A DNA stretch of 64,000 nt. It comes from Moniliella sp. 'wahieum'. Taxonomy: Eukaryota. Under the pieces are notes generated by a model, which had not been told where the DNA came from, ran no database searches, and was given only the letters and a program-made list of their open reading frames with translations. Positions 2,187 through 43,410 of the stretch are shown here, piece by piece (positions within the stretch are counted from its first letter, which is position 1; the number at the start of each line of letters is the position of its first letter). Position numbers and translations under genes: made by a program. The stretch covers positions 124,001 to 188,000 of the forward strand of contig RSEE01000065.1 of NCBI GenBank assembly GCA_003971905.1, given 5' to 3'.

Positions 2187-2640
2187 GCCTCAGTCAGGGG
2201 ACGTGGCACGTGGAGACGCCTGAGCGCTGAGCCTGAGAGCCGGAGGCCTGTGTGAGCTCAGGTGTTGCATGTTATGCATGTTACGCGCGCGACGCATATA
2301 ACCAGGCCAGAGCCGAAGAGGGACTCAGCAACACACTCAGTGCAATCGCGGCTCCGCGATTCAATATGAAGGTGGCGTTGGAGAGATGTGGCAGCCGGTG
2401 GGCGCCATATACACGCGTACCACGTAACCTGTAACATGTAACAAGCCTCCTTCGCGCGCGCGCGTCTCCTGAATCCGACTGATCCGGGCCTGACTAATGA
2501 AGTTGTCGGTATTTCAGTGCATCAAGCCAAGGACTTCAAAGGACTAGTGAGCGCTGAGCCGCTGAGCCGCTGAGCCGCTAAGCCCCACCGCTGAGCGCCG
2601 TTAAGCTTTTAAGGCCGAAGGAGACCATTATGCATTATGG

Positions 2641-2668
2641 TTCAACGTTCAACGTTCAACGTTCAACG
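2641..2668. repeat. Heptamer tandem repeat (TTCAACG)x4
   Basis: ttcaacgttcaacgttcaacgttcaacg read directly. Confidence 0.95.
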
Positions 2669-3795
2669 CGGGCCAACGGTTCAAAACAGAGTCCTTCGAT
2701 CATATTGATCGGTCTGAGTGGGCAATCCTGGACTCTCCCGCGGCAAGCTTCAAGTCCAGAGGCAAGCAGGTCCAGACCGAAGCCAGGCCCAGACCCTGCC
2801 AGGCCCCGGCCAGCTGACCACAACCTCGGCTCCTTATTTGGACCGGCGCTGACCGGGACCCCACGTGCTGTATCCAGGGCCTGTTTGACGAACTCATCAA
2901 CGCCAACCATCTCAAAACGTCAATGTCAACGTGTCAACGTTCCACGAGACTGTGTTCTGTCAGTACTCAGTGCCACACACACCATTTATGTCAAAGCCTC
3001 TCCTCAGGCCTCAACGCGCCTCAACCGGACCCAACTGCAGTCATATCCTTTGATTCTTTTCAAGCTTCAAGCTCCAAGGACGAATGACTTTTCCCTTCAT
3101 GATGATCATGAGTGTTGCGATCAACTGCGGAAGCTTGAACTTCAAAAGGCGCTCAAACTTCAAGCTTCAAGCTTCAAGTTCAAGGGCCTCAGACTATCAA
3201 GGTCTCACTTATACTATTCTCCCGCCTTTTCTGACTGCGGTAATAGCGGCTGGCCATCAGCTGTGACGCGTGACGAGGGAGAGACCCCAGACGCAAGGTA
3301 GGGTACAGAAGGGTACATAGGGGTACAGAAGAGCGATGCATGGTGTATCATGATGGATGATGTATAATGCATAATGTATGATCTGCCTGATCACGGAGAG
3401 GGCGCACCCTGCACCAGTAGGCACTTGATCCAAACGCGTGCATGAGCTGATTTGTTGCCTCTGCCCAAAGCCCTAGGGCCTAGGCGCCGCCAAAGGCTCC
3501 AAGCCCACCACCGACACGACCCGTTTCCACCCTCTCGCCAAGCCAGTCCAAACGCCGCCTTGTGCTCTCTTGCATCTCTCACGGCGATGACGGATGGCGT
3601 CGATGAGGCGCATGAGTGCGGTACACTCATCTTTTTCGCCTCGGGATGATCCAGCAGCTGCCCTCGCTCTATCGCGCGTCTGAATTCGCCTCCTGTAGTT
3701 TAATTACCGGGGGACACAGCGATTGATCTGTCGCGTCCCAATGGACTTCCCCCCATAACCACACCCAAACGAATCCGCCCCCCTTCGTCGTGCAT

Positions 3796-5040
3796 ATGCT
3801 GCCTTCATCGCCCCCTCCGCCTCTACATCGTCCCACCACACTCTTGTCTTCCCGAACAAGCTCCAGTCGCCCTTCCTCGATTCGTCCAATCTCGCCGTTG
3901 CTCTTGGATTCTCTGGATGCGAGCGGGGTGCAACGCGCAGTCCCGCCGCTCCAACGGTCCGCCACTGTCACAACCTCGCCCTGGATTTCTCAACCCACAA
4001 GTCCGCTTCCCTCAGAGCAGAGGATGCGCCGCACAGCCCGGCTGTGACCAAGGAGCCGAGACGAGCTCGGGCCATGACAACTCTCCCATGCTCTCGATGG
4101 GGCCATCCGCCAATGCTGTTGGGCAGAGCAGCGAAAGGAATGGGAAGGAGGATGCGTTCGCGCCCCAGAGTGTGCCTCTGGAGGCTACCTCTTCCCCCCT
4201 TGGTCCATCTCACAGTACTGGGTACCATTGGGTTGGTCTGTTACGTCGCTTGCGCTTGGGATCCCATGGTGAGCGATCCCCACGCCTTGCATTCCCAACC
4301 GATCCATCACCCGGACTCCTTGGTCGTCCTTCTTCCGAAGATGGTGCCGACCCTGTGGATCCGCACACCTTCTTTCCTTGCCCGCCTTCGACCTTCCATG
4401 GGAACCGTGCCGATACAGGAAAAAAGTTTCCTTTGAGAGGGCCAGCAGGCTCGGCTCGCGGTCTCCCGCCGAGGAGACTGGACCGAGTAGAAGCTCCTCT
4501 GCTGGAGCAAGGGGCGCTAGTACTTCAACGGAACCACCATTTGGAACGAATGCGTCCCAATGTCATCTTCGACTGGGACTCGTACATGGGCGCGCCCCGA
4601 GGGGAGTGAGTGGCTGTACGTCCACCAAGGTCTGTTGCACGAGCAGTCTCTCTTCACTCTCCTTTCCTTGGTGGCCGAGCGCGTAGATAGCGCTTTGGAC
4701 CTAATGGGGGTGGAGACCCAAATGACCCCGGCTCATCCGTATGTGTGGCTAGCCGCTGGCATGCCGCACCCACCCCAAGGGGTCGACTTGTGACTGGAAG
4801 GGAACCGTGGTTTTTTCCATTGAACTGACTCGGATCGCCAAGGTGCCTGGCTTGGCCAGCGTCGATCTCAAGCGAATTGCGGGTTGCGGTGCAGAGGAGT
4901 GTACGACCGGGTTTACCATACTTTTTTCGGCTGTGCGACTTGACTACAGACCCTTCCGTTTGACATGGGGTTGTTACTGGGGAGGCTGGACTGTCATGGA
5001 CGGCTATATCCCAGTAGTCATCCACCAAGTCCAGCAATGA
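3796..5040 (+). CDS. Hypothetical protein: Ser/Pro-rich N-terminus plus C-terminal KA1-like (kinase-associated) domain, no kinase domain; frameshifted
   Basis: Joined frames give LYVHQGLLHEQSLFT..VAERVDSALDLMGVETQ..YVW and VVFSIELTRIAKVPGLASVDLKRIAG, resembling the C-terminal KA1 region of fungal CAMKL kinases; end uncertain (4942-5040). Confidence 0.5.
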
Positions 5041-6002
5041 ACTGGGATTCATCAAAGTTGAGTCTCTACCCTTTTCTCATTTTGAAGAGCCCAGATGAAG
5101 TGTACGATCAAATTCAAGCTTGATGGACCTTGTTTTTGGACGCCACAAGTATCTTTCAGTGGCGCTGCAGCGCGCCTTGTGTTTTGGAACGAAGTTCTAG
5201 TGTATTGTGAAATGTGGGTTATCCCCTGTACCTCTCTTTCCACATCTTCATGATCGATTTATACGCAGTTAGCAGGAGTGCCTGATGCTTACCCCGACGT
5301 TGCGCAACAGCCGTGCGCGTGCGATGAGCGAGTCCCGCATCCATCTAGACCGCGTGAGATTTGCCGTAGGTCTGTGAGTTTGTGGGGACCACACTCATTC
5401 TACAGTGGGGTGAGTGTTACGAGACCGTACTAGCACCGTCCCCTCTCCCCTTCTGCCCAGTGGTTTTCTCGCCACTATCTTTTGGTTAAGATGAGCAGTT
5501 AAGGAGGGAGATGACCACGAGACTACTGCTAGTTCCCCTTTTGCTCCTCATCCTTCCCACATCGCATACCCCATTTCGACAAAACTTATAAAGCTTCTGC
5601 ATTGCTGGTCTGTTCGATGCTCAATCCCCCTTGAAGCATCAGCTCGGGTTTAGTTTTCTTCCTCAGTCCTTCCATTCAACGCGTTGAGTCCAACTCTCTT
5701 ACCTGATGGGGCCGCGATCGCGCTTGCAAAGGCGGATGCGGAGGCAACGTCCTACATGTCACACGCTGCACACTGTGGTCTGACGACTAAGCTTCACTTT
5801 ACCAGAACCACTGCTTGCGCTAGTAGAGGCAAAGCTCACCCAAGAGGGGGGGCAAAATGCTGAGGCATAAATGGAGCACGGGGGACATGGGCGGACAAGA
5901 AATGTAGAGTACAGAGCCCAATCAGTACCAGCCTTTGCTCCATACCGACGTGGAGAGTGAGTGAGCGGGTTATGAGGTGGGGAGGAGGAGGGGGGGCACG
6001 GC

Positions 6003-9000
6003 CTACTGCCCCTGGGCGGGGACCGATGACGGGAACGGATACGACATGGCGAGGGTACTCTTGATGTTGTCCAGGATGCGCGAAATCTCACTGGCACAGG
6101 TACCTGCAGCGTGGTTGGTGGTGCGCGCAGCAGTCGGGCCATGGTGTACAGCGTTCCCCAAGGATGCGGGCGCATGACCACGATCCGCTCGAGCAGAACG
6201 CGAAGGATCTGGCCTTGCACCTGGGAAGGTACCTCTGAGTCCTCGGGGACCAGACAAGCGGGGGGGGGCAGCAAATAAGTGGACCAACACCGTCGATGCA
6301 AACTGCATCGACGCACAGGGAAAGCGCAGCTGATTGGCCAGCGCAGAGAGGAGGAGGAGGAGCGATGCGGTCCGAGCTGGCCAAGAGTAAGCTCACCAGT
6401 TCACTGGCCTTGGCAATTGTTGCCTCATCAGGGGCTTCAGCCACACGCTGGCCCAGCGCTTGCGCCAATGCATTGAGAATAGGTTGAGCGACCATGAGGG
6501 CTTGCTCCTCTTCCTGCTCTTCGGTCTCGGCAGGAGTGAGAGTCGTGATGCTGACAACATGAGCGACAATCGTACCGAGCGAGGCAGGGGGGGGGCGGTA
6601 AAGTAATTAGCAAGGAGTGCGCTGACCTTAGCCCAAACAGGACTCGCATTGCCTCGAGCGTTGCGGGGGCTGAAGCTGGTTCCAACCTCGCTTCGGGGAG
6701 CAGGGCCAGGTCAACAGCCGGGTCGAGTGGGTCGGGAAGGCGCGAAGTTGGCGCGGGTAGGCACAGAGAAGGATGTTGCGCAACTGGACAAACTCGCGCG
6801 GGATCAGGTCGCAGAGAGGGAGAGCATAAAAGGCAAGGAACTCTGGGAAATCGTGCAGGAGCAACATAAAGATCCGGATCGCACCCAGATAGATTGACTG
6901 GGTCGTCTCCGTTCCCGCACCAACACGGCGTACGAGGGCAATGAGGCGAACTTGGGCCTGCAGGAGGGGGTAAAAGGCGTCCCACCCTTGACCGTCGGGG
7001 CAGAGAGAAGATGAGGAAGGAAGGCGCGATGCGAGATGAGTGACATCCAAGCATGGGTGTAACCCGCGAAGAGACTTGGCTGTAGTGCCAATAGACTAGG
7101 TGCGACCGCCACCAAGCAGGATACGTATCGGCTACCCAGCATAGGCGAGCTTTGGTGGAGGAGATGAAGAATGGAGCTGAACACGCGGAAGAACGTCTTG
7201 CCCGCCTCAGGTTGCGGATGCACATCCACAAACACCAGCACGATCACCAGCAGCATCTTGTGCAGTAAAATTACCTGGTTGCCCGAATGGAACGTGGTGA
7301 GCAGCACCACCAACTGGGCCAAGGCGTCGAGGGGGGTGTAGGCCGTTAGGCTTTGCCCAGCGTTCAAGCGGGTTTGAAGAGCATGACCCTTGATACATTC
7401 ATGGGTGCAGACGCGAAGGAAGAGCGCCGTGTTAGCTTCGCTCTTGAGGACGTCCGCCGCCTGCGCACGGTCGACAAACTCGAGGAAGGCTTTGTCCACA
7501 TTAACCGCCTCCTCAAATGCCAACACCCACTGGCCAAACCAATCTGCCATCACGTCTCGCACCGCCGGATCATCTAACGAAGCCGCCTCACCGACATGCT
7601 GCCAAAGACCGTCATGCAGAACAGACTTGACACTAACAGAGAAACACGTCAGTACACAGTCCACAAATGACAAAAAACGTACGAGTCGCTCGCCTGTCCA
7701 GCCTCCGACGTGGCACGAAGCATGGTGATAATGTGTCGCAGTTGGGTACGCGTAGCAACCGACTTGGTCGCTTCCTGGACAAACGCGGCGTTCATCTCAG
7801 CCTTGTCCGCGCCAGATTGAGCCCACTGAGCATCCACTTCGCCCACCCGCACCAGCTGTTCCTCAACCAAGGCAATCATGCAGGAACGTGCCGCACGTCC
7901 CACTGGCCATCGCCATAAACCAACCAAGCTGCCACCTCGCCTTGGGCGGGGGCGACAGGGCACACAGGCGCTGAAGAAGGGTGATGAGCGAGTTTAGCGC
8001 CAGCAGCTCCTGCGCCGGCGTTCTATCTTCCCCTGTTGCCCAAAGAAGCGCAACCACTTTCGAGGCAAACAAGAGTGCCGTTTCGTCCTTGCGTGGGCTG
8101 CCGCACCAGTTCGATGACCGAGAGCAGCAGCGCCGGCAGTTCGCTGTCCGGCGGCAGCTGGTCCAGAGCTGTGGCCTCTGCTCCGTCGGCGGTACGGGCA
8201 AGGCGGACGACGCGGTCAAAGTCGGGACCGAAGCGGTTGAAGAGCTGCAAGGCAAACGAGCCATCTGTTGGACGAGGACGTGAGACAGAAGAACGACCAA
8301 AGTCGTCGTAAACCCGTAGCTGAGCGGGGGAGAGACCATCAGCGCTGAGACGAAGCAAGTCCGGCAAAGCTGAAGCATAAGCAATATGCACGCTTTGGTC
8401 AGGATCCGCAAAAGGTCCCGGTGCGTTGCGTGCAGCCAAATGCGGAGCCAGAATGACATCCAGGTCCGCCACAGCCTTCTGCTGCGCAGCCCTCTCAACC
8501 ATTTTGCTCGCCATGTCGACGTTCTCGTTCATAAGGCTCGCCAGGGCCTCGACAGGAAGCGAGGCTTCGCTGAACCCGCCATCGAGGAAAATCATGTGGG
8601 CATGCTGGACCATCGACGTGCGGAGCGGGTCCTTGGATGTCACATACGCAATCGACCCTACTACGTCTTTGACCATCTGGTGCGCAGCGTGAGATAGCTT
8701 GGCCGAGTCGGACTCGAGAGCAAAGTCTTTGAGGACCAGCTCCTTGGTCGATAAGTTGCCAATCGTTGCCGAGCGCTCCACAACGGGGGGAGCAATGTCC
8801 CGCACGGCACGCTCAATCGCAACACACAGCATGCGTTTCAGGGTCGCGTTGGTCGCAAACAAGCTTAGAGTCGGAGGGATGACAATCAACTCGGGGAGGG
8901 AGGCGAGCATGCTTTGCAGCAGCGCAGAGTAGGGCATGGCTTCCTGGCCCATTGCAGGCTCCGGGACAGGTTCGACTCCCTCGGCCGATGCGGGGACAAG

Positions 9001-12000: not shown

Positions 12001-12046
12001 CGCCAGCGGCGGCGGCTCGGCGGGAGAGCGCGCCGCCGGCGCGCAT
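6003..12046 (-). CDS. NOT1: CCR4-NOT complex scaffold subunit Not1 (multiple apparent frameshifts; intron ~7633-7683)
   Basis: LFDEYRCFERDYPPRELGIAATVFGQII; SDKILFLVNNLS; LARNIPIKHRNIAFKELLLQGY; AIPFVCKVLEQ; PNPWL; LKLNLKFEIEV; AWMSLISHRAFLP; LLHDFPEFL; RPHPWG; start approximate. Confidence 0.96.
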
Positions 12047-12291
12047 GGCACAGACGACGGGCGGAGGAGGTGGTGGTGGGGCGCAGCCGGCGGCGCGGTG
12101 GGCGCGGCGCGGAGGGCGGCCGCGTTGCCCAACCCTAGCATCGGCCGGTCTGGATCCAATCTGGAATGGTCTAACGTCAGCGCTTCCGCCGCATGGAGGC
12201 GCGCTCTGCTGCGCGATCATTAAGGTGATCTACCTTCCGTCTCTCCCTCCATCTGTCTACACAGCTAGATACAATGGGGTATCGGCATTGC

Positions 12292-13631: not shown

Positions 13632-13918
13632 GGAATCAAGCAGCCATGGGATGATGGGTGGCTCAGCCGTCGAAACCAGCCCACCCGCCCCGTTGCCGTG
13701 GCCGTGTCCGTCGCGGAAACGCCCCGCCGCCATGGTGTCCGCCTGGGCTGCCGACGGCCCATCCATTCCGCCACGGCACGGTGCAACCCCCGACTCCGCC
13801 CCTGCGATTTAATCGGCTGCGCCCGCCTCGGTCCGCTGTCAGCACCCACAGGCACCCACCCACTGCACCACCACCACCACCCCAACCACCCCCCACCCTC
13901 CCTCGTCGCCACCACACC

Positions 13919-15363: not shown

Positions 15364-15965
15364 GCGGTTATCTGTGTTCCCCTCCCCATCCCCATCGCAT
15401 TTCCCCTTTCTCCCCTCTCCTTCTCCCTCTCCTTCTCCCTCCCCGTATTTTTTCTTTTTTTGAACAGGTTGCCCGTCGCTCTTCGCCTGAGTGCTGACCA
15501 ATGCCCAAGTCGGCTCCTCTCCAAGACGGATGATCGATGACAGAAGTAACTTGGTATGGCACGGGACAAGACACTTTCGCCAAGGCAGCCAAGAGTAACG
15601 TTTCCACAGCAATAGCTCAACATACCGCCGGCGGCCCGGCAACGCCTCTCAACATTCCACTGTCGCCCCAAATGGGGAGGTTCCGTTACTTGTTGCTCTC
15701 CGTTGGGTCGACATTTTTCATGATCGTGGTGTCATTGGCCAGTCTCGTTAGCTTATTCATTCTTCCGAATTCATCGCCCTTTTTCTCCCGTTCTTGGTCC
15801 CAATCCCCTATAGGCCCGACACGTTGACCGTGCATTGTAGCCAGTGACTAGTGACTGCCGGTTGTGCTCCTCTTACATTGGTGTGTGGTACTCGTGCTGG
15901 TCACACAAGGGACTAGGCCACAAAGTGGAGCGATGGGGGCGAAACTGCACAGTTTTTTGGCAGAG

Positions 15966-19173: not shown

Positions 19174-19573
19174 GCAGGCGGGCGGGAGCGGCCGAGTGAG
19201 GAGGTGGATGGTGTTGGGGGCTTCGGGCTGGGGGAGGACCACAGCAGTCGGACGGAGCAGCTGTGGGTGTTGAAACGTTCAATGCTGAAGACGGAGTAAG
19301 GCTGGCCCAGTGGCCTGATCTAGCGCGGATCCACCTGCGCTAGGGTTGAACGTTGATCCTCAGCCGTGCCTCGCGCGCCTCCCTGCGCGGAAAGCAAGCG
19401 TGGGGCGGAATTGTGCCCCACTGCGGGCTCGGCGTGTGGGTTGCTGCCGCTCCTACGGCTCTGGAAGGGCACACAGAAACTCGTCAATATTGTCGGTACC
19501 AGTGGCTCCGCGGTTCATGCGGCCGGCGCGGTGTCTTCTGCCTGCTCAACGACGCTAATGCGCAGAGGGGGTG

Positions 19574-21916: not shown

Positions 21917-22414
21917 CGGGGTTACCGTAGCACAAGTCCAGGTTGATCTGGGCGATGAGAAATTGGTGGAGAAAAGAACCGGCTGCCCTACCGGGATGGA
22001 GAATTTGTGTAGGACGGGAGGATATGGGAAGGAAAAAGGCATCCCATATAGAGCGTAGCGGAGATATATGTACTTTTTTACTTGCTCTCCTGGTGGTCCG
22101 CGGGGTTCTCTGCTGGGTCACGCCGCTCAGCGCTCATTGCCCCTATGCTATACGCTGGACACTGAACCCCAAAAGTACTTAGTAGTCATCGACAGCGAGC
22201 TGTTGGCCCTAGGGATCCAGACCAAGTCCGGGGCCCGGACGCATATACTATGACTACTTTTCAATGCGTGAAAGGCTGGCATAGGAGGGTAGTAGAGTTG
22301 GGCAAATAACCGTTGAAGTATGACAGTCCCCACAGTTTGTCGTAGGTAGCGCTCGGACTCGCTTCTCCTGCAGCTTGAGTCTCAGGCCTCAGGCCTCGGC
22401 AGGTGATTGTGTTA

Positions 22415-22445
22415 GGGGGGGGGGGTGGGGGGGGGGGGGGGGGGG
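22415..22445 (+). repeat. Poly-G tract interrupted by one T
   Basis: Read directly. Confidence 0.9.
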
Positions 22446-22480
22446 TGAGTATGGGGGACACCGAACAAAATGTCGACGGC

Positions 22481-22510
22481 TACTCAGTACTCAGTACTCA
22501 GTATACTCAA
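22481..22510. repeat. Heptamer tandem repeat (TACTCAG)x3
   Basis: tactcagtactcagtactcagta. Confidence 0.9.
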
Positions 22511-25500
22511 GTAGTGGTTGCAGTACTATTGAGTACCCTGTGGTAGCCGTCTTGCCACTCGAGTAACTGAGTAATACGAGGTCGACCGACGTTGAGGCCG
22601 TTGAGACATTGAGGCCTGAGGCCTGATGATCGATGATCAATGATCCATGAGGAACGTTGAGGTCGATATCAGTCTAGACCCACACATCTTGCACCACAAT
22701 CGATCGGGGTTTCTCTTCTCCAGCATCTGAAATACTCAATACGAGACGGTGGACATTATATACTCGCAAGTGTACCATATATAGTAGGGCCGATCCGTGT
22801 CCTCCTGAACGCTTCGTTTCGAAGGACATCCGTGGCCAAATGTAGGTCTGCTTTGGCTGTACAACTGTTCCTAGAATCTGAATCATACGCAAGGTACTCA
22901 AACAGAAATGGGCAATGGCAGTAGGTGCGTCGAAGATTCAGCAGTTTATTGAGACGCCGTCACGTGCATCATGCACATCTTCAAGCCTTCGTACTTGTTG
23001 GTGCCATCAAATCTTTAAAGGCAGATCCTGCACCACAGCCCCTCAACGTCTCTCTTGAATAACTTGCGTTGGGCCAGTTTGTATGGAAGAACGAAAACGT
23101 GCCGGTATGGGGAGGAACCCCCCAAGAAGTATATGATATGCAGATTGATATGATCGATGATCTAGATCTTCTCCGCTGCATACATATAGAAGAGGTCGCC
23201 CTGAGTATACTTGGTATGTGACATGTGAGTGCTGAGTTATACCAAACCCCTTTCCTATACGTTCCATCTCGTTGTCAGTAAGAGCTGCAGCAGGTTTGGC
23301 ATAAAGGAAACCTTTGAGGCTGCTTGCGAAAGCGCTGAGGCGCTGAGCTCAGGCGCTCTGGCACAGCATCCCGCCACACAGTACAATAATATAGGCAAAA
23401 GCTTTGAGCTACTCTCAGATCTCACTAGTCACTATCCACCACGATTCACTTAGTAGTCACTACTCCGTTGAGTACTCAGACTAACCACCTCAGAATACTG
23501 TGAACGTTGGTTAACGCTGGCTGCTGCGTCCACGGCTTTTTTTCGGCAAAACAAGGGCTCGAGGATGGCCCAGGGCTAGACCCTTCTGCACAATTATTGT
23601 GATGATCGGTAAGGATGTTCAAGTTGCCACACACACCAAACGACTGAAAGTTGGGCTAGTTGACCGTGTTGTGTGCAGCCTTCAGATATAGATCAGATCG
23701 TCGAAGCATCTTGTCCCCCAAGGACAGAACCAGCGCAGCACGTTTTTCTGTACACGCCCCCCCTAACAGTTTTGGCAGGTCTCTTCACTGGTAATTCTCA
23801 AACTTGCACAGCCCACTGGCTATCTCCTCAATGTTCAACGTAACACGCAACGGCTATACAAACATAGGATCATTTCGCATTTTCAAGCCGTGGCACTCAA
23901 GCTCAACACTCAACGATTGTGCGTCCCTCTATACTTCCCAGAGGCGCGGGACTGGGTCTGATTCTTGCGATCCATGTGCATATTACAAAACGAAGAGTCG
24001 AAAGAGTATAGCGGAAAAGTATACTATTACCTCTCGGAGAGCGTCTTCGTCAGCCTCTCTCTCCACTTTTGATCAACCGGACGCTTCACAGTGCCTCAGT
24101 TTTCTCATGCACCCCCAAATGGCATTTCATATTGAGTACTGCCCTGTCCCAACGCGTTGTTCTGGATAGTGACAATCATCTTTGTGATCAGCTTTCTCCT
24201 GGATGTGCGATCGATACACAGGAATAAGGATACGCAACACATGCATATATCACAGAGATGCATCACTTAAAGATTGAGTATTTAGAAGTACTAAGTATAA
24301 ACCCCGCCCCCTACAACATGTCACACTCACATGGTGCTCACATTGCAGCCATATCGCTTCCACTTGGAGTTCTACTCATTAGACTCGCCCGGCTACTGGT
24401 CAGCGACAGTAGTAACCTACACGTAACTAGAAAGCAGCTTATTATTAATCGGTGCACTATATATTGCTCTCAGTAACTAATAAAATTAGCAACTCAGTTA
24501 CTAGTTAACTCAGTACTCGGTGCACTTAGAACAATGAACGTATGAACTCAGTAACCGTGCCTGGTCTAGACCCCGGACTCAGTATTCTGGGTCTCAGACC
24601 TCAAAATTCAATACGGGTGCGGACTGCGGGTACTGCTGGCTAGTGCGGGCCGCGGCAACTTGTACGCGTTGCTCAGTGGCGTTCGGCCAAAGCATCCGGC
24701 GCTCTGTACTCCGGCGATACCAGCGGTCGCGTGCCGGTCGCGGTCCATCTCCTTCCAATTCCATCTCGTCCATCGGTCTCGCAGGCCCCCGGCCGCCGGT
24801 CCCGGGCAACTGCACCTATTGAGTAACCGCGCAGCGTCACGCATCCGCAAGGTTATGCACTTGCTGCAGGATCGGGCGCCCAGCGCTGAGCCTCAGGCTT
24901 TTGGAATCTGTTGCCCAGGGACGAGTTTCTGCTGCAATCAGATGGCCCGACTCAGTCAACTATAGTACGTTCAAAACGTTCAATAGTCAGATCTCAGACT
25001 GACTATAGTGTCTAAAGGACAATTAGGCCCTTAGGCCTTAGGCCCTTAATAGAGCTTAGATCTACGAGACGCGGGAGATGGAGAGCTGACCATGCCGGGT
25101 ACGGAGGCCGGAGGGGCCTCTATTGTCTCAAACGCCAAACACCGATTTTCGAATACCAAACGAGTTGCATATAATGCAAAACCCCGCCTGTGAACTGTGG
25201 TGTGCCTGACAATGGCTGCCCTCCTCATATGTGGACGCGGTTGTGTGACAAGGCCAGAACGCCATCACGCGTCACGTCACCACGTCACGGTAAAGCTATG
25301 CAGTGGCATGTTTATTTGCGGTTTCGTGCTTGGGACGAGTCGTACGCGCAGAGCGCGTAACCAACACAACGCAACCGGTAGCGGAAACCGTAGCGGATGT
25401 TGACAGCTCCCCCTCCCGCGTAGAGGTGTGGAAGGCGAGCACGGCAAGGGGAAGGAATGTGGTAGTGATGCAATTATAGTAGGGGATGCACAATCACTTA

Positions 25501-28500
25501 TGGGAGAAAAGGCAATAATAATACCCCCGCGTCACTCCCAGTCTCTGGGCTCTAACAAAGACGAGGGAGACCATAGGAGAGACCAGAGTCGAGATTAAAT
25601 CGTTCATGGCGAAACAAGAGCAAAAGACATGAGGAAAAGCGGAACAAGAAACAGGGAAAGAGCGAGAGCGAGAAGCGAAAAAATTGGAAATGGGACCGAG
25701 ATCAGCCAAAGTATGACAACCCCCGCTGCGAGGGCGCAAACAGAGGGGGAACGCGGCCGCACCCCAGAATGAGACTCTTCGATGATGAGATTTTCCTCGG
25801 ATGCCCAAACAATTTACTGGCAACATCCGTGGCAGCCTACTAATAGGCTGCCGCTATAGCACCCGGCATGTGCCATCAATAATGACCTCTGGGGAAAGAA
25901 TGACACATTCTTAGTCGTCTCTGGCTCTTGGCGTTCTTGGCGCATTGCTCTTACTGATGCATGATGCAGCTGATGAAACAGTAGATGCGGCGCCCCCACC
26001 TGATGTTCCACCAGGCATTTTTGCTGTCTCCTCGTGTACCACCTTTTTCGGTACACATTTAGCCTCGTTGGTACCTGAGTCCCTCAGAGTGTGATTCACG
26101 TCCATCCCCGATCCTCCGAACATTCCCGCTCCCATGATCGACATGATCGGCAGTATGCCTGTGGCCTTCCTTCCTCCTTCCGCGTCTTTTTCCCTCTCTT
26201 AATTCCTCCTCGGTGGGATCTGAGAACATGAGTGTCCGGGATGTGCGCACATATATCGGCTCCCGCACAGTTGCGTGCAGCGCTCCAGCCTTGGATGGAC
26301 GCGGGAACGTACAAACCATGATGTACTGAAGCGGTAACACCAGATCACACTCTTGCGCTAGGTGCTGTGTGCGAGAGAGGAACGGCCCAGGGACGGATGA
26401 TGTAGAGACCGATCGGGACCTGATTGCTGTCGGTGAGCTCAAGGCACCTGGCTGTCGGCAAGGAGTAAAGTCAAGTGTAGTTGGTCGCAGTTTGCTGTGC
26501 TCAGGCACATGCGGCCATATGCCTCTTCGTTGATGTTCTTGCGCTGTTCTTGACTCATCTCCGGGATCTTCATTTGGCGCTGTGGCGCTGCATGCAGTAA
26601 ACGTCACCAGAAGAAAGGGTTTGTTGGGAATCTCGAGAGGCCTCTGTGGCCTTTTTGGCGTGAGTCGGTGCCGAAACCTGGACCCACCATTAGTTGATCG
26701 TTATTTGAGGCGACCAATCACATATCTGCATTCAACATGACATCAGAAATGTCATTTATCAATCTTCATCTTCACCACCAACCCAAATATAGTAGCAGTG
26801 AGAGGTTATGTGCACACTGAAGGCATTGACACTAATAACACAGGCCACTTGTCCTGAAATACTCTTACGCGGGAGCTTTCATGGCGTCCCTCTCGTTCCC
26901 CAGAAGTATTCCGCCATGCATGTATCATCTTTCGTCGATTGCGACGGACTCTTATTGGAAGCCGAGTCCCTTTGGGTGGGCGCTAAAGGTATCTATATAT
27001 CTTCCGAGACGAACCGGATACGATCTCTTCGTTTCTCCACCGACTCCATCTAGTACACCCTCATTCCTCCTGCACCGAGCCCCCAACAATGTCACCGCCC
27101 AATACCATCATGTCGCGTGATACTGTTGATGATTCAGCCCTGATGTAACCCCCACGCCAACTGTGGTATTTGGCGTTAATCCTCCAGCTTCCAGCACTCT
27201 CATTCTACCACTCCTTACCCATTTTGAACGCCTCTGAGGTAGGGATGTCACTCTCGAACTGCCCTCATGGCTTTGTACTCCAAGTCATCCGTCCCGAGTC
27301 ATTGCTCCGCCCCAAATTGCGATTGGCCACTACTTGATCTAGACTCGTCTTCGCCCCTTCTCGTTTTCCTTTACCTCATTGTCGTCCATATTTTCCTCGT
27401 CCAGGCGCGTGGGGATACACATATTCCCTTGTCATTGTCGACCACTTGACTCCTCGCTATTTACCCCGACACTATTCCCCTGTGGTGTCCTAAGGTGAAG
27501 CCACCGTCATAGACTCCACATGCGTAGTTCATATGTGCAATGCAATACTGCACCACCAGCTGCCTGGTCTCTGTTCTTCTATAATACACCGTATGCACCT
27601 CCTGCTCTTCTCTCTGCAGGCGCGGCACCAAACGCATTGAGGCCCAGAGAAGAAATATGAAGAAGAAAATTGCAGGCGAGTTCCCGCTGTTGGGGCACTA
27701 CATGGCCACGCACAACAGAAGTCTTCCTGTTGGCCTCTTCCCCCTCCTTTTCTCTCCCCCTCTTGTCCCCTCCTCTCGTTTCCTGCCTATCGGGGAAAGT
27801 CCGTGAGGAACTGTCATGGGTGTAGCCCAGGACTGTTCCCGCACAAGCCTCCAGCGTCATCGTTCCATCCTCCACCGTTCCATAGTCCGTGTCGATCAAA
27901 AGCAGTAGCACCCTCAACTGTTCCGCCGATCATCGATCATCTGCTTCCTGGGGGACTCGGAACGGCGTCGTGGCTTACTAGCGCTTAGAAGAGGAAACGA
28001 AGAATGCGAGACAGGCACGTGACACAGCAAGTTTGATTCCGCTTCCGTTGCCACCTTTCACTTCGGTGCCAGCCTTGGCTTCGGTCTCCGCTTCGCCGCT
28101 TTCACTTCTCCGCTCCCACACCGTATTGCCGCCGTGGCCTCTGTGGACCGGTAACCGGCAAACGGAAGACAAAACACGCATTGAATATTTTGATCGATTG
28201 ATCGCCGGCAGCTAATTAAGCTCGTAAAAGCCGCTTTTGCATTGACACGGCGGGCTTTATCCTGTGGCTGATATATATGTGAAGCCCCGTGACGCGTGAG
28301 GCCCCTGATGCGTGCTGGTGCAGGCTGGTACTCCTTGACACACCACAGGGAAAAAAGGGGGGAGTCTAGCGCCACCTTGACGCGCGGGCCTGTCAACAAT
28401 TCACACACACATTCGTTTTTTTTTTTTTTTTGTTACCTGAGGCAGCCTCTGCTGACCAGCCTGGCCGTCCTTGGTTTTTGAGGGCCTGCGAGGTCCTGAG

Positions 28501-30875
28501 GAGAGATAACCTGACCGGCTGAGTAGTGACCTAGTGGCCTATCGTGACCGGCCCCAGCGAGCTAGGCGGTGGCTTGCTTCTCATGCTGCTCTCGTTTGTA
28601 ACATGTAAGACAAAGGTGTACGCTGGTGTACGTTGCGGGTACCACATTCCACACATTTCTTCCTGCTATCCTCGCAAGGTCACATCGCCGACGCACACTG
28701 CTACTAAGCTGGATTTCGTGGCTCTCCAGGTGCCCCTGAGCATGGGCATGGAAGATGGATGTGCCCCTGGAAGCTGGATTGTGCCGATGATGCAGGATGC
28801 AGTTGGCAGGGACGAGCGCGGCTGGGCATGTGGTCAGACGTTCTGCGCGTTACGCGTTGACACGTTTAAAATTTAACGTCTGTTCTTACCTGCGCGTAAC
28901 GCGTAACGCGTAACGCTTGTATCGCAGCGGCATTAGCGTGACGCGTGACGTAACCGTGGGCGACGATTGTCAATTTTTGATTCAGTAGTACCTGGCAATT
29001 GGCGACTAGCATCTGAGGCCTAGTGAGTGACGCCATGCAGTGTGACAACATGTGACATGCGCCATTTGACGCGAAGGGTGTTTGTGCTAAGATGGAGATG
29101 CCACATTTATCGCGACGGCAGGCATGTGTTTTGATTTGCCCGAGAAGGCTCTCGGCTGCCGAGGCCGAGAGAGACGCGGAAACTGCTCTGGCCTGTTCGC
29201 TCTCTGTCCTCTGCGTTTTCTCCGTCTCGCAGGTCCCATCGAGAGAGATACGAGAAGGAACTGAGTAACTGACGATTGATGCATTGGTGCGACATGCACA
29301 TACAGGGCATGGGTCCCATGTCACATGTCACAGGTCGCCCTGAGCATGCGAGCGCTACAGAGCCAGGATGCTGGTTTGCCACACTCACTGACGCTTGGGC
29401 CCTCGCCAGGGGGGACACAAGCGGCAGGGGTACAGCTTGTTGCCGGACGCAGCCTGGTTACATGTTACAGCAGCTGCCACGGTGCCGCTCAGCTCATGCA
29501 TGTCATGAGCATCCCGAGGCCTGACATGGACAAAAATGGTCGAAACTGCATGGCAGCAGGTGGCACCAACCCAGCACCAACATACAAACACGCTGGAGCG
29601 CAGGCCCTGGATCATGCATCCGATCTCAGATCTTACATCCGAACAGCATCCAACATCCTGCATCCAGCCACCTTGTTAGCTGCCTGTACAGGCGAGGCCT
29701 GCCATGTGCATCAATCATCTCACGCCAGTCTGTCGATTAGCCCCCCGTAACATGTAACAGGCGCATACGCTCTGGCAGCTGCGTCAGATTTCAAATGGCC
29801 ACAAGAGGCCAGCACCCTGGCGCACCCCCAGCAGCATACGCCGAGTGCGGGGAAGGCACAGCGGCAGTGTCGCCCCAGCTACGCTTGTTCCCGACGCAAC
29901 GCTACCCACGTAATACGCATGCTTGCAGCCAGGCCAGGCACTGGCGCTGGGATGTTTTAGTCAGCCACGCATACAGGCACTCCTGGCGCCCCTTGAAGAG
30001 CTTGAAGCTTGAAGCTTGAACGAAGGGGCTGAGCTCTCGCGCTGACTCGTGGCCCCGCCACCAGCCACCCTGTGCCCCTTCCAGCTTCAAATTTCAACCT
30101 CGGCGTTGGCCGCGTGCCGTCCAGCCTGGACGCTGTGCCTGCTGTACCCGCTTTTACCGCGGAGCGCCCTGCCAGTTGGTGCGTGGACCTCCGCTGTGAC
30201 ATGTGTCGCCTGTGACGAATGACGCATGTGCATGACGTATGATATGTGACATGTGACGCGTGCCGACGGAGCCTCAGCGCCGCGCCTGGCCCCCTGCGGC
30301 GTGCTGCGGTGGCAAGGCATCGCGGCACAGTGCAGGGCGTGTGCTGCCTGTGTGCGCCCCCCGGCCTCGGCACGCCACCCGCATGCTCAGCCGAGGCGCG
30401 AAGGCGCAGCACGCGACACTGCCCCCGTCCCCGCTGCAACCAGCTTCGTCGGGATGCGCAGTAGACGTTACGCGGTGCGCGTTAGTCTTGGACGGCAACA
30501 ATGCACAATGCACGCTGGCGGCGGGCTTAAGCTGCTTGAGGCTAGGCGCTGGGCGCTTAGGCTAAGCGCTAAACGCTGGTACGTACCTGCGAGAGAGCGA
30601 GCGGCGCCGAGCAGCGCAAAGAGAAAAACAGGCCGCTGGCCGCGGCCAGCACGGGGGCAGTGGGCCATTGGTACGGCCCAAAGCACGAGCAGCACCACGG
30701 GGGGAGCGTCCGCACCCGGGGCGGTGCGGCACCAGGGCCGTGTGTCGAAACCCCAGAGTTGAGCACGACGGGACGAGGGGTTTTCATATACCCCCGCGCC
30801 CTTTCTCGCTCCAACGTGCTCACACCCCGCACGCCCTTCTCGCCCGTCCCACCGCTTTCACACCCGCCCCTCGTC

Positions 30876-32609: not shown

Positions 32610-33744
32610 CTCGACCAGCTCGGTTGCTCCCAACATGGCTCAGCCAGGAACGTGACGATACCCTCTTCATCTCTCTCTTCTCCTTGCCCTTTTCTCCTTT
32701 CTGAATACCTGCGCCCGCGACCCATTGTCCCCCCCCCCCTGCTCTCCGACATGTTTCTACTACTAGGCTCACTACCCCCAGCTACCATATGTTGACTGTA
32801 CCATCAGAAAAAATCTCTGTTTTGATCTAGGGCTGTTGCATGTTATTGCTTTGGAGAATTGTCTTGGGAATGTGAGGTAAGCCCTGACCTGAGTACTGGG
32901 TACGGATGTTAGTCCTGAGTAACCGGGCCTGGCCAGCCGTGGTCGCAGGCTGGTCACAGCTGTTGTGGATGTGCACTGGGACGGCTGCCTCTGGAATCTA
33001 GAATGGATGGCTGCATGCATGGATTCGAGGGGCATAGTGCATTGGAAGCGGTGGCCAGGTATGTATGTAGCTTGGAGGGGGCTGAAGCTCTGAAGCTCTG
33101 AAGCTTGAAAGGGCGTGTCCTTCTCCACCAACACAGCCCGAGCGCCTGTTGTTTCTCCACCACCCGATCGTTACTCCATAGGCCTTAATCCCGCCACAGC
33201 AACAAGGTAGCGCAGGCTCAGTTATTGGTTACTCAGGACGCTCAGTCCCAGTGCTGAGCGCAGCTGAGCAAGCTGAGCGCCTAGTCGTTAATCGGTTTTG
33301 AGCAATTCTGAATGGAACGTTCAGTTGAATTGAACACACCGTAGTGTTGACGTTGACCCTTCGGCTGGAGTGGCATCATGCATCATGCATCGCAAGTCAT
33401 GCGTCAACTCGCACCTACGTACAGCGCGCCGGAACGGCAAACCGGCCAAGCCAGCCAAGCGCACCTGCCCCCCTATAGCCACCTCCCCTTGAATTGGCCT
33501 GCTTCAAGCTTCAAGCTTCACACACGCCAAGAACATGGGCACCCCGGGCGTCGGTCGCCGGTCGCCAGTCGACAGTCGTCCAGTGGTCAACAGATCAGTA
33601 AAAACTCAGTACAGTGCTTGGTAGCGCTCAGTACCCTTCAGTACGGTCAGACGCCAATATCCAATGCCGAGAGCCACGGAGAACGCCTGTCCTTGGACCC
33701 TAGTCCCTACTAGCAGAGTTCGATTTTCAGTCCTTGTTGGCGTT

Positions 33745-33812
33745 TGAAGCTTGACGCTTGGAGCTTGAAGCTTGAAGCTTGAAGCTTGAGGGCCTGAAGC
33801 TTGAGATCTTCA
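33745..33812. repeat. Degenerate heptamer array (TGAAGCT)n
   Basis: tgaagcttgacgcttggagcttgaagcttgaagcttgaagcttgagggcctgaagcttgagatcttca. Confidence 0.9.
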
Positions 33813-35053
33813 CAAGGGACCGTGGGGCTTACTAGGCGACGCCGCGTCTAGACTCAAGGACGACGCTGACGCGCTACTGCCTGTCGAAACAAATTAAAGG
33901 CATCAATATCCAATCAGTATGCATTACCGCCTTATTACCGTCGCCAACAACCACCTCTTGCCCCTGAGGCCCTGTCAACGTCCAGGCTCGCTTGCCTCGC
34001 CCACAGCCGAATCCAACAGCAGAGAGAAGAACCTCGGGCTCAGGGGGGCGGGGGGCTGCGGTCGTGTGTGGGATCTGGCCTGTCGAGACCTATGAGGGCC
34101 TGAGACCTGATACATCTGAGCTGCCCAATCTCCGAAAGAAGGCCACTGGCGATCTATATATAGCCGACGATATTTGCCATTGCTCTCAGCTTCACATGTC
34201 ACATGTCACAGTGCGCAAGTGTGCGTGGGCACTGGCGCAACGTATCCAGCTGGCAGCGCGACCCCCTCTTGGCCAGACGGCGGGAACCCAGTCCTGCACG
34301 ACGCCCTGAGGCTCAAGCCTGAGGCTATGAGGCACGGAGAGGGGGTCGGAGATGTGATGTTGGGCTGCATGTGGTTGGTCGGCCGGGGCTGTGCAGTGCC
34401 TGGTAGTTTAACGTACGTTTAGTATCGCAGAACGAGCAAGGCCGATCGAATCTTCTTAACGCCACGGACATTCGCCCTCTCCTCGGTTTTAGCACCAAGG
34501 GATGGGATGGTTAGGTTGTAATCAGACTTGTATTATTGTAGAACGGGAAATCATAATATTACAGCAGTGTAGGCCGTTATTAGAGAGCCGGTGTGGTGTA
34601 TGAGGACCCGTCAGGCCAATGATGATGTTCAGCGTTGAAGTTCAACGTCCAACACCGTCGACACTGTCCATTGTTGCATGAGCTACGTCAGCTCACCAGT
34701 ACTAATTCTCAGTGCCCTCCACAGCGCCCTCCTCATAGAGACTCTACAGCCTCATCAACGCTTCCGTCATCGCGTCATCGGCTCTCAGCAACCCGAGCGG
34801 GTTTTGCTGATCCTGCTTGTATAATAGGCATAGTTCTTTCTGCCCGTTGATGCAGCCTGTTGATGCGATCCCATACTGATAAAAAACAAAGAGACGATTC
34901 GGTGAAGCCCCTACTAGATTCAAAACGGCAATAATGCCGTGAGGAGGGAGACACAACAGGGAGCAAAATAGAAACGATCGAGGGTTAGGGATGGAGGAGG
35001 TGATCGAGATTCAATACGCAGTATATTCAGTGCTCCGTTGAGTGGGGGTTTAT

Positions 35054-35090
35054 GTGCCCTTGGGACTTGTTGATGGTCATAGCTAAAAGC
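35054..35090 (-). pseudogene. Tiny relic of a Pif1-type (Helitron-like) helicase motif
   Basis: Minus strand GCT TTT a GCT ATG ACC ATC AAC AAG TCC CAA GGG CAC = AF-AMTINKSQG. Confidence 0.5.
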
Positions 35091-35120
35091 GTGCCCGCAG
35101 TGCCCGTTACTTGTGGGTAC

Positions 35121-36510: not shown

Positions 36511-38645
36511 TTTGAGATCCTGAGATCTGACTCTAGACGCCTCAGCAGTTCAGCGTTTCGAGGCCTGAGGCCTGAGGAGGCACCGCTGTAAAAGACTGAG
36601 AGTGTTAGGGCGTTGAAAACGTTGAGGCCGGAGGGGAGCAGTCCTACTATATATCATTGACATGGGCACTTAATACAAGCATCCGGCCCTATTCCTCCCC
36701 CCCAGCTTTCAAAGCGCGTAAAACGCCACAACCGCCACATCAAATATACACATAGAGATCGGAGTGTTGTGCAGCAACATTCCAGGCATTTCCATAGTTG
36801 TGTGGGCGGATGGTGGGCGGCAAGGTGGATACGATGGAATGGTGCCGGTGGCTACCGTCACTCCAGCGGTGATTTTGTTGAAGGAGAATGGGGGATGGGA
36901 AGAGGCAGGAATGACGGATGTTTGATGCTCTTGGTGATACCAAAAGCCAGGTGAACGTTGAACTTTCGCCACATGCAGAGAGCTGCGATGGCTGCGATAC
37001 CACCAACCCTTCTGTCGAGATGCTGAAGGCCGCGGGGCGTCCAGTACGTAGGATACGGTACAAGTCATGTTGTCTCTTCTATATATTAATAGAACTTTCT
37101 TGATGGTTTCAGGGCAAAACGATCTAAGAGGCGCAGTGTCAGCGCCGTCATTGTAGCGTTTGGTGTCGCGCGCCAGCACTTCCATGGTCATCACAATAAT
37201 GGCCTTTTCATATACCGAGACGTCCAGCCTCCCCACTCAGGCCGACTTCTCAGGTATTCAAGACTCCAGCTTCAAGCGTCAAAAGTTCAAGCTTCTGCAT
37301 TCGGAGTAACTCGGTTTCCTCCAGGCCTCAGGCTGATGGCTGAGGAGCTGAGGGCCACTCTTCTCCAACCACAGCAGTCCGACTGTGTGCCGTGCCCGAG
37401 CCGACAGCATCACACTCTTTCTCTGGCGCACATGTCAAACGCCAGCGATCGAGGCGATGGAAATGCTTGATGGTCGATGGCTGATGATCGATGATTGATC
37501 GATGAACGATCGATGAACATTGAATTCATTGTTCAAATTTCACCTCGGTGGATCTGCGGTGCCAGTGCGGGCGCCTTCCTTCCCTTCGATGTGACAGGCT
37601 GGATGGAATAGAATATTGGCCGGCCTGGTGTGCTTCGATTACGCATGGGATTGCACATGTCAAGCGTCAGCAACAGCTTCACCCCCACGCAGTCTGGCCC
37701 TGCCCGCCTGTGGCATAGACGCCGACGGATGCTTCTACACGCTTCTCGCTGCGAACATACAGCCTTGTGCTCAGCCCCCACTAGTCACTGCGAAAAAGCT
37801 TATTGAGACTGGGCTGTGGCGGCGTTACTACTCGCTCGTCAAACGTTAATCATTAACCGTTAAGCACTACTACTCATTAATATTTTAATACCCTTCCACC
37901 ACCCTTCATCCCATTACTCTCTTCTGTCCGCGACCTGCCCTGGGGTTGAACGCTCGCAACTCAGGACCAGCAACTTCTTTTCCAGCCTCGTTTCCCTCTC
38001 GGCCTGAAAGCCCCCTTGGGCTTCTTGGGCCTTCATTCCCCCCGTCCTCATTCTATCACACGCGCCCTCGCCACACCCCTCCTACACATCGACCCCGTCG
38101 CTTCCTCGGGAAACCCTCAAGCGGCATTTCCGCCATCGATCTGACCCTCACGCCGCCAGCCATCTCCACGCCTATCTTCAGGCGCGCCCCCTGCACCTAC
38201 ATCCCGACTCGTCTTTTTCCTTCGCTGCTCCACAGGATCGGCGCGACGGTTTTGAGCCTTCGTTCGAGTTCGTCCCCCCCTCCTTTCCGTCCCTTCTGTA
38301 CGCATGTGTGGCAGTGAATATACAACCGCGGCTTGACAGTTCTTGTTGCTAATGCCCGGTGCCCCTCACCACGTTTTCCGCGCGGACTGCTAACGTACCT
38401 TCCCCTAAGACTGTCTTCAACCTTCTTCTCATTCGTCTCCTCAGTGCCACAGGCTTTGCTCTCTTTCTGCCAGAGCATTACCGCTCAGTCACCAAATCCT
38501 CCGCCCACACACTACTTTGCTTGCAGTGGCGCTTGTGCCTGACGTATTCCAAGCCCCCCGTTAGTTTCGGCGTGACTGGTAGTTCCCCGAGCTTCTTTTG
38601 TCTTGCCTTCATTCAACTCTCATACTTTCCATCGCTGGGGTCATA

Positions 38646-41598: not shown

Positions 41599-42861
41599 GA
41601 GGAAATAACTTATCCACCTACCCCTCACTTGTTATCTCGCATCTTTTCAATGCGGTCTCCAGCCTGGTCTCTCCCACGGACTTTCCATCCACTCCAGCAT
41701 ATTTTATCGTATCAGGGCAAAGTAGCGCTCTTGATGCGGGGGAGAAGGCGGATGAGACAACATCGATGATCCAGTGGAGAATCAAATCAAGCGCATCCCA
41801 AAACACGAAAATGGTGTGCTTGGCCCATCACTACTCTCCCACGGAGCGGACAACAAGAAAAGACAAAGTCCCATGTGCGTTGCTAAACACGATTCCTGCA
41901 CTCGGCCCATTCTTGCGTCCTCTGCCAGCAACAAAAGAAGAGGAAACACATTGAAGCGTGCCCATCACACTAAACACGAGATGAGCGGTACGCTTGCCCA
42001 ACCTCCCTCTTCTTTGTCTGCTGTCATCCCCCCCCGCCTTTACCCCCATACCTCTCTTTCTCTATACGTTATATGGGCCTCATTTGTCGCAGGCGGCGCC
42101 CCATCCCCCAACGCACACACACAGAAAATAAGAAAAACACTCTATTAAAAGACACCGTCGTAGTTGTCGCCTCCCCCCCCCCTCGCGCCTCCCTCATACA
42201 TAATCCTCCTTTATACAATCCATTCGCATTCTTGTGTTCCATCCATATGTCATTCAATTCTGAGAATTGGTCGGACCCCTGCCTTTTCCCTCCATTCCAC
42301 TTTTCTATACTGTGTGCCTCCCCGTTGTTCTTCACTTCATGCGCCCTTGCTGTTACGATTGGATCACAGGCCTATATACATCTCGGTGTACCATGCACTC
42401 CATATAGTCCTTGCACTATACCATATGTGCTACCTAATAGTCATCTCTATACCAATGCCATCCCAGCAACGTATCCAGCCCCCTTTCCCATGTTCCCTTA
42501 CTTTGTGTCACACACACCTTACTGACAACTCTGTCCAGCATGGCTACTGTATGGACGAACAAGGTGAATAAGACGACGCCAAAAATGATGGATCGTGAAG
42601 GAAAACTCTGTTGGATATGGTATTTGTGCTACGGTTCTTCTGCGCAGTGGCCCTCAAGTTGATCGGTAACACGTGACGCTCGCCTAGTCGGGCGGAAGCG
42701 TTCCGCTCACAGGCTGCGCACCTGCTGCCCATTCCATCTCCTCTCTTTCCTGTCTGTTTCCCTTGAAGCTTGAGACGTTGCTTGAAGACTTGTGGCTGTG
42801 ATCACATTGCCTTCCCGCCTTGTCTGAACATCTGAAGGCTGCTTTGCAGCTCGGGTGCCGG

Positions 42862-42981
42862 TGAGCACTGGCTGAGCGCTCAGGCTGAGCAGCTCAGCGC
42901 TGCTAAGCACACTGAGCGTACTGAGCGCGTACTGAGCGCGTACTGAGCGCTCAGGCTGAGCACTGAGCTGGGCCTCAGACT
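42862..42981. repeat. CTGAG/CTCAG-based degenerate palindromic repeat cluster
   Basis: gctgagcgctcaggctgagcagctcagcgc...actgagcgcgtactgagcgcgtactgagcgctcaggctgagc. Confidence 0.85.
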
Positions 42982-43361
42982 GATCCCATAATAGGATCCC
43001 AGAGTGCTCCCAACAATACTCCCGATACTCTTTCACTCTCCGGTCCGAGACACTGCATGTGTCAGGCCACGTGTGACGGGTCAGTTGGAAGAAGCTTTTA
43101 AAAAGCCCGAGAAGACGGGCTGGGGACGACTCAGCAGGAGGCAGACACGAGGTGTGGCGTGCACGCGGGCCAGGCGCGGCCGATCGAGCTTGGGAGGAGA
43201 GAAGACGGCGGAACGGGGACGAAACGAGGAGCGTCAGGCGGTCAGTATTCCAGGGGATCGATATTCAATGTTGCACCCTGAAGTTTAAGTTTCAACCTTC
43301 AAAGGGAGGCCTGGGAGGCCGGAGGCCGCAGGGTTGTGCGCGGCTGTGCCAGGGCGAGTGC

Positions 43362-43410
43362 TGTGACATGCGACATGTGACATGTGACATGTGATGCATG
43401 ATGCATGTGA
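43362..43410. repeat. Heptamer array (TGACATG)n switching to (TGATGCA)n
   Basis: tgtgacatgcgacatgtgacatgtgacatgtgatgcatgatgcatgtga. Confidence 0.9.

Follow-up and report, generated by a model that had tools for sequence, protein, structure and literature searches.

Palindromic T-N-A heptamers between the genes of Moniliella sp. 'wahieum': probable repair scars of a cut-and-paste element

We analysed a stretch of 64,000 nucleotides from Moniliella sp. 'wahieum' (assembly GCA_003971905.1, 69.5 Mb in 223 contigs), located at positions 124,001 to 188,000 of contig RSEE01000065.1 (C65:124001-188000) and called the window below; other contigs are cited in the same short form. The intergenic DNA of the window is dotted with palindromic heptamers, in which two T-N-A triplets enclose a palindromic tetramer. 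These products occur in excess, and they are polymorphic, with filled and empty alleles. To judge from their geometry, the single sites are probably repair scars of a cut-and-paste element that makes a 7-bp target duplication and, in a RAG/Transib-like manner, leaves flush hairpins at the flanks, which are then opened 2 nt away from the tip; slippage would lengthen some of them. The repeat "grammar" that a first-pass annotation of this DNA had noticed is thus likely to be the fossilised trace of a reaction that breaks and joins DNA, and not a code.

The observation of palindromic heptamers itself was sound, and the arrays cited in the first-pass annotation lay no more than about 10 bases from the positions given. 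A 6-bp palindrome was present in 25 of the 34 exact tandem heptamers of the window, and all 25 had the form A....T. When all cases of T-N-A, four nucleotides and another T-N-A were counted, 77 out of 194 enclosed a palindrome and 117 did not, compared to 4-7% palindromic for the control triplets (palindromic/non-palindromic counts of 18/439 for G-N-C, 21/363 for C-N-G and 10/126 for A-N-T). The base N was identical on both sides in 70 of the 77 palindromic sites. The predicted enrichment over shuffled DNA was present for these same-N sites: 70 were observed in the window, while 200 local shuffles retaining approximate dinucleotide content produced 2.2 ± 1.5, with a maximum of 8. The statement that arrays stay out of coding exons held as well, with one of the 70 sites falling inside gene spans. 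The spans, drawn approximately from open reading frames (ORFs) and Pfam hits, cover 33.5 kb and hold 980 of the 2,444 TNA triplets of the window (40%).

We observed the same rule in a genome sample of 841 kb (hand-picked blocks of 15 contigs, with the window included and haplotype duplicates removed). In this sample, 704 of 1,357 same-N TNA pairs enclosed a palindrome, compared to 94/1959, 68/1429 and 19/634 for the control trinucleotides (3-5%). One 18-nt array pattern had 1,738 matches genome-wide, and its reversed control had 0. Some details of the earlier description need adjustment. The spacer base N, given there as G or C, is mostly so, with A or T in 12 of the 70 window sites. There are indeed many units under one rule, but instead of about eight we counted 12 of the 16 possible palindromes in the window and all 16 in a 741-kb sample. 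Arrays do exist, but most of the sites are single: 496 of the 587 clusters found in 846 kb had one unit, while 27 of the 91 longer clusters mixed different palindromes. Extrapolated, the density of about 0.7 clusters per kb would give roughly 48,000 clusters in the assembly. Three of the listed examples were also irregular: the one at 23330 is an 8-bp variant, the one at 25024 mixes 7- and 8-bp steps, and the one at 42872 has complementary N.

A pattern for mixed arrays matched 29 metagenome stretches as well. The other TNA pairs of these stretches were palindromic in only 17 of 198 cases; therefore, no second genome with the pattern was found among those 29 stretches. In the 741-kb sample, CCA and TGG triplets had an inverted spacer in 33/151 and 25/119 cases, respectively, compared to about 6% for most triplets. 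This weaker class suggests a relaxed target, (T/C)-N-A.

The palindrome is a copy of the two flanking bases from one side, followed by a sharp stop. Among 392 isolated palindromic sites of the 741-kb sample, the two largest cells were left-2/right-0 with 67 sites and left-0/right-2 with 54 sites, compared to 26 and 34 among 447 non-palindromic sites. That is, xy-TNA-zw becomes either xy-TNA-zw-w'z'-TNA-zw or xy-TNA-y'x'-xy-TNA-zw, and the two mirror forms are similarly frequent. The products had the same N in 664 cases and complementary N in 87 (741-kb sample). Self-symmetric inferred targets were in excess, making up 140 of 394 strand-counted sites.

We also classified maximal repeats D-M-D by repeat length and presence of an inverted spacer, comparing repeats with TNA in register to those without TNA. 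In the 5+2 class, the spacer was inverted in 156/231 cases with TNA and in 111/761 without (Fisher p 4e-52). The respective values were 15/35 and 28/222 for the 6+2 class (p 6e-5), and 22/33 and 18/147 for the 7+2 class (p 6e-10). In the 7+2 class the TNA was central in 24 of 47 cases, while every other offset had at most 2; therefore, the duplicated unit is nn-TNA-nn. The resulting 9-bp form, in which a whole 7-bp unit with TNA at its centre is duplicated and two inverted bases are added, was rarer than the 7-bp form, and the classes with 3 and 4 inverted bases had at most 3 cases each. A 5-bp duplication with two inverted bases was therefore rejected as a complete account, since it leaves the 6+2 class and the centred 7+2 class unexplained.

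Filled and empty alleles could be compared in homologous contigs of the assembly. Window positions 2180-23241 correspond to C157 and positions from 36511 onward to C17, while another part of C17 corresponds to C62. Positions 23241-35120 of the window have no homolog among the matches; hence the sites located there have no allele comparison. The aligned haplotypes comprised 151,394 columns with 4,367 substitutions. An indel was considered clean if 10 identical bases anchored it on either side and no more than 2 substitutions were nearby; cases more complex than this were excluded. Clean indels of 7 bases numbered 24, compared to 19 of 5 bases, 18 of 6 bases and 8 of 8 bases. The rule fitted 14 of these 24, namely five right-flank copies, four left-flank copies, three duplications of self-symmetric targets and two array changes. 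The nine one-sided events were inspected by eye, and in five of them the empty allele had no palindrome and both junction bases were new, so these five go beyond plain slippage. Among eight nine-base indels, two had the 7+2 form. In five repeat families with 53 copies we found three sites; two of them, in old solo copies of long terminal repeats (LTRs), count as insertions when compared with the reference copy, and the third is ambiguous. The filled state of the solo-LTR sites where the reference copy is empty points to gain over loss. Array lengths differed by whole units between haplotypes. Thus, the part of the first-pass annotation that spoke of a mutational process with slippage agrees with both kinds of variation, filled versus empty alleles and array length. 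The implied rate would be one event per about 360-550 substitutions, a value coming from a noisy assembly.

Products of this kind could arise in a few steps. The element would insert at xy-TNA-zw and duplicate those 7 bases. Excision would then be flush with the element ends, each flank being sealed as a hairpin, as RAG and Transib do. A host nuclease opening the hairpins 2 nt past the tip would leave 3' overhangs of 4 nt, with zw-w'z' at the left flank and y'x'-xy at the right flank, as the geometry of the sites suggests. If end joining retained one overhang, the +7 form would appear as either mirror, with upper-strand joining giving one form and lower-strand joining the other; a smaller loss from the other flank would give the +8 and +9 forms. 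Once two units exist, slippage can change the array length, as the unit-length differences show, while fresh visits beside old scars may produce the mixed arrays. Flush excision with both hairpins opened at +2 would account for the length, for the existence of two mirror forms, for N staying the same and for the +8 and +9 forms.

A DNA hairpin that has been opened is recognised by bases of the flank end that are copied in inverted order, and P-nucleotide footprints are familiar from assays. The sites of this genome have three properties of RAG/Transib-type footprints: the inserted bases are an inverted copy of the flank end, the palindrome is even-centred with mainly two inverted bases, and a target duplication of fixed length survives partly or wholly (5+2, 6+2 and 7+2). 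On the other hand, the target duplication of Transib is 5 bp, whereas here a 7-bp duplication with TNA in the middle encloses the unit. In published texts, the flank-hairpin route is attributed to hAT, Transib, MULE and RAG (PMC5499845), Artemis cuts hairpins mainly at +2, leaving 4-nt 3' overhangs (PMC2175297), and Pso2 is a related enzyme in yeast (PMC5873905). As these same texts describe them, RAG coding joints with P nucleotides and Transib excision products share with our sites the even-centred flank-copied palindrome, the prevalence of two inverted bases and a variably trimmed partner end (PMC2175297, PMC5499845). The scars here differ in being inherited, genome-wide and far more uniform, and the enzyme behind them is hypothetical.

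Other known systems resemble the sites in part. Footprints of Ac/Ds (hAT) in plants, budding yeast and Candida albicans combine a target duplication with a short palindromic insertion (PMC5873905), and hAT7 of rust fungi has a 7-bp duplication (PMC12730594). However, the hAT palindrome is centred on the complement of the base beside the element, as stated for Ds in PMC5873905, and this odd-centred form is rare here, 11/273 compared to 81/273 for the flush form. The CMCT clade (EnSpm/CACTA, Plavaka, ESTA and Transib, with CNEST and CNIRT6 of Cryptococcus), which PMC12730594 and bioRxiv 10.1101/2025.05.19.654958 describe as kin of RAG1, is represented in this genome by Tnp2-like genes; in contrast to that clade, the Tnp2 copies here are broken and have no ends, and they are tied to the scars only as candidates. 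Heptanucleotide microsatellites share with the multi-unit arrays the change by whole units between haplotypes, which concerns growth and not origin. Unlike microsatellites, the clusters here are mostly single units (496/587), the longer ones are partly mixed (27/91), and the first unit is no plain tandem copy. The scars appear to work like RAG/Transib joints, and we leave the superfamily label at candidate level.

Several observations weigh against a resident element as the source. Scans of about 1.0 Mb (1.5% of the assembly) revealed no element that has inverted ends and is flanked by a 7-bp nn-TNA-nn duplication; still, with a few dozen copies, a family would usually escape such a sample. 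An all-against-all comparison of about 840 kb produced no family of miniature transposable elements with inverted repeats (MITEs), only LTR families and families resembling long interspersed nuclear elements. Six clear large insertion polymorphisms were all of LTR type with 5-bp duplications. Tens of thousands of scars from so few elements would need a family that is small, extremely active or recently lost. DNA-transposase matches were limited to three Tnp2 (EnSpm-like) loci, all broken. Two of these, C17:556181-558825 and its C62 homolog, are common to both haplotypes and show neutral decay, with frameshifts and a ratio of nonsynonymous to synonymous polymorphism (pN/pS) of 0.8-2.0. In PMC12730594, CMCT elements are reported to have duplications of 2-5 bp compared to the 7 bp inferred here, and in PMC5873905, 128 Ds excisions gave 28 footprint types, more varied than the scars here. 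The form retaining both overhangs is nearly absent. Ten of the 24 clean 7-bp indels are off the rule (three other tandem copies and seven with no fit), and among the one-sided events three are one base from a plain tandem copy and one is a plain copy inside an array. Two of eight eight-base indels fit, yet both are plain tandem copies.

The three Tnp2-like loci had no convincing CA..TG inverted ends around them. The best match of the C17/C62 gene among 1.8 billion representative proteins was at 29% (E 9e-21), with no close relative, and domestication of this gene was rejected on the pN/pS values and frameshifts. The third locus, C34:513262-516872, has three long frames (446, 251 and 543 codons) and is placed between two ordinary genes, without inverted ends. 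A second copy of it was not found in the assembly; therefore, no empty site can be read. Word-seeded protein searches with two Tnp2-like ORFs gave no match, an exhaustive search gave only distant relatives at 25-40% identity, and a profile of these relatives detected no further locus in the sampled DNA. A genome search for hAT (dimerisation domain, PF05699), KDZ, DUF4218 and Plavaka gave no match, a result of little weight since the controls were likewise below cut-off. Scans for inverted ends with a duplication returned only chance or LTR pairs; for example, a CAC-starting pair in C17, separated by 12 kb and matching at 10 of 14 positions, was attributed to chance. We also rejected the LTR integrase as the agent, since its duplications are 5 bp and TNA was in register in only 1 of 6.

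A host-borne enzyme could produce the scars with no resident element, be it a RAG/CMCT-like nuclease that was domesticated or some other route of breakage and repair. It would make a staggered break of 7 nt at nn-TNA-nn; after this is filled in, the ends would be sealed as hairpins, opened at +2 and joined. Such an enzyme would suit scars that are plentiful (587 clusters in 846 kb) and still polymorphic while about 1 Mb yielded no element; the family searches that gave only broken Tnp2-like genes and the unusual uniformity of the products speak for it as well. We nevertheless consider it unlikely: in the established chemistry, flank hairpins need a nick and an attack across an intact junction, hence DNA between two copies, and the tested Tnp2-like pair showed no purifying selection. 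Should a RAG-like activity be host-borne after all, which we doubt, it would constitute a lineage-specific ongoing mutational signature, with one exact 7-base palindromic insertion at intergenic T-N-A and tens of thousands of repeat seeds near genes.

Replication template switching or fold-back at short quasi-palindromes, with slippage as the amplifier, was proposed in the first-pass annotation as the source of the first unit. Array length does vary between haplotypes, 3 of the 24 indels occurred at self-symmetric targets, which are also in excess among the inferred ones (140/394), and 4 of the 9 one-sided events are at most one base from a plain tandem copy. However, the five clean events had no prior palindrome, and their two new junction bases are the inverse of the flank. 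Moreover, N is kept (664) and not inverted (87), and a fixed 7-bp window centred on TNA (24/47) with a zero-loop switch has no basis in template switching. We regard this origin as very unlikely, and the fold-back part of the earlier proposal is not supported.

The other proposal of that annotation, a code of shape or spacing for a protein that binds the DNA, here taken to be maintained by selection, is not supported and is less likely still. The sites do cluster in long intergenic tracts near the zinc-finger and YTH genes and do avoid gene spans. Still, they show no excess conservation: of 154 cores, 98 (64%) were also found in the other haplotype, compared to 66% for neighbouring 10-mers, with new insertions lowering the site figure. 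No more than 20 of the 75 clusters had the same sequence in both haplotypes, every one of the 16 palindromes is in use, sites arise inside old LTRs too, and binding does not predict a sharp two-base flank copy. Finally, an assembly or amplification artefact has a negligible probability: the assembly is noisy (737 of 1,191 clean indels are single-base), but many sites are common to separately assembled homologous contigs and avoid gene spans, and we know of no read error that takes the form of sequence-specific, flank-templated 7-bp insertions.

The genes of the window are fungal. A Pfam scan of 86 of the 127 ORFs identified NOT1, a GHMP kinase, an aminotransferase, two C2H2 zinc-finger ORFs, a YTH protein, Sir2, ATP synthase gamma, Bre1 and Sec8. 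Among named organisms, the best relatives of the ATP synthase gamma protein come from Malassezia, Tilletiaria, Kalmanozyma, Tilletia and Ustilago, with identities of 60-63%. Judged by these protein matches, the host is a basidiomycete near the smuts, without a close relative. The NOT1, GHMP kinase and aminotransferase genes (window 5835-19114, compared with C157, C22 and C153) have a haplotype at 94-98% and, in addition, 78-84% copies on other contigs; this level of identity hints at an older duplication or a hybrid origin.

The left end of the window, positions 1-2179, together with upstream C65, is the right end of an LTR element of 5.3 kb, which has a 5-bp duplication and is missing in C157. 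To the right of this element, 11 clusters are located at 2221..3374, with starts at 2221, 2432, 2548, 2628, 2642 (three units), 2960, 3004, 3060, 3160 (two units), 3264 and 3365, and an 8-bp variant at 2926. At 2221-2242 the window has the 7-bp form, while C157 has the 8-bp form, twice, at the same site; either the one target had two different outcomes, or a single base changed later. At 2626..2639, a 7-bp duplication of the self-symmetric target CA-TTA-TG is present, where the one copy in C157 represents the empty allele. The single scars TCA-GTAC-TCA-GT (2960..2971, a right-flank copy) and TGA-CGCG-TGA-CG (3264..3275) both correspond to 7 bases absent in C157; given nearby substitutions, both are outside the strict indel set. 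The AAGCTT-C array at 3158..3178 is two units longer in C157, a length change of slippage type. Window 2686-2692 is the empty site of an 864-bp solo LTR, which is filled in C157 with a 5-bp duplication.

Further along, two single scars are present at 15531..15854, between NOT1 and the GHMP-kinase gene, and one at 19347..19356, on the 5' side of the aminotransferase gene. A zone of 13 clusters at 22127..26146 lies on the 5' side of the minus-strand C2H2 zinc-finger ORF (starts 22127, 22382, 22484 with two units, 22610 with two units, 22627, 23151, 23219, 23415 with mixed GATC/CTAG, 24498, 24987, 25031, 25265 and 25955; 8-bp variants at 23336 and 24535, a 9-bp variant at 26135). Another zone of 13 clusters, at 27930..30572, is on the 5' side of the plus-strand C2H2 zinc-finger gene (starts 27930, 28290, 28599, 28867, 28897 with two units, 28939, 29321, 29458, 29748, 30003 with two units, 30087, 30247 and 30563; an 8-bp variant at 28191). 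Within it, a 9-bp variant at 29992..30007, the 7-bp duplication CT-TGA-AG with two inverted bases between the copies, runs into an AAGCTT-G array. Seven clusters follow at 33083..34778 (33099, 33376, 33504 with two units, 33745, 33766 with three units, 33795 and 34192 with two units; 8-bp variants at 33083, 33091 and 34767).

Window 35121-36510 is a 1.39-kb non-coding LTR element with identical LTRs of about 240 bp (TG..CA). It has about 49 near-full copies in the genome at 95-99% identity, and therefore the element is young. The flanks of the window copy mismatch each other, and the homologous contig switches at this point from C157 (left) to C17 (right), which could reflect either a rearrangement or a misjoin.

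Six clusters at 36521..37542 (36521, 36566, 36952, 37485, 37496 and 37533) are on the 5' side of the YTH-domain gene. The region 42764..42926 is mixed, with a single scar at 42764, a complementary-N site at 42873 and a 9-bp variant at 42913. At 43070..43086, the window has the empty allele TG-TGA-CG, while C17 is filled with TGA-CGCG-TGA. The mixed array CATG/CATG/TGCA at 43364..43407, all in one TGA register, is 21 bases shorter in C17. The remaining 20 kb, 44000-64000, are gene-dense (Sir2, ATP synthase gamma, Bre1 and Sec8) and have one chance site; with the classes pooled, scars in this part seem to shun short spacers and introns besides exons. The site in question, the sole one in a gene span, is at 62353..62362 in the SEC8 region. 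It has no flank copy and is not kept in C17, and it is probably there by chance.

A literature search, with most subscription papers outside its scope, found no report of such scars covering a whole genome, of TNA heptamers with palindromes in smut-related fungi, or of any EnSpm-like element that makes a 7-bp duplication; nor did it find anything on the intergenic heptamer repeats of Ustilago maydis mentioned in the first-pass annotation. If the sites are indeed excision scars, they would indicate a RAG/Transib-like element with a 7-bp target duplication, of which the literature searched gave no description. Motif finders should be applied with caution here, as the strongest intergenic "motif" would be a scar. 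The excision scars would give rise to a class of microsatellites beside genes. The genome would also hold a dense record of transposon visits, in which target choice, hairpin-opening position and end-joining outcome could be read in vivo without an assay.

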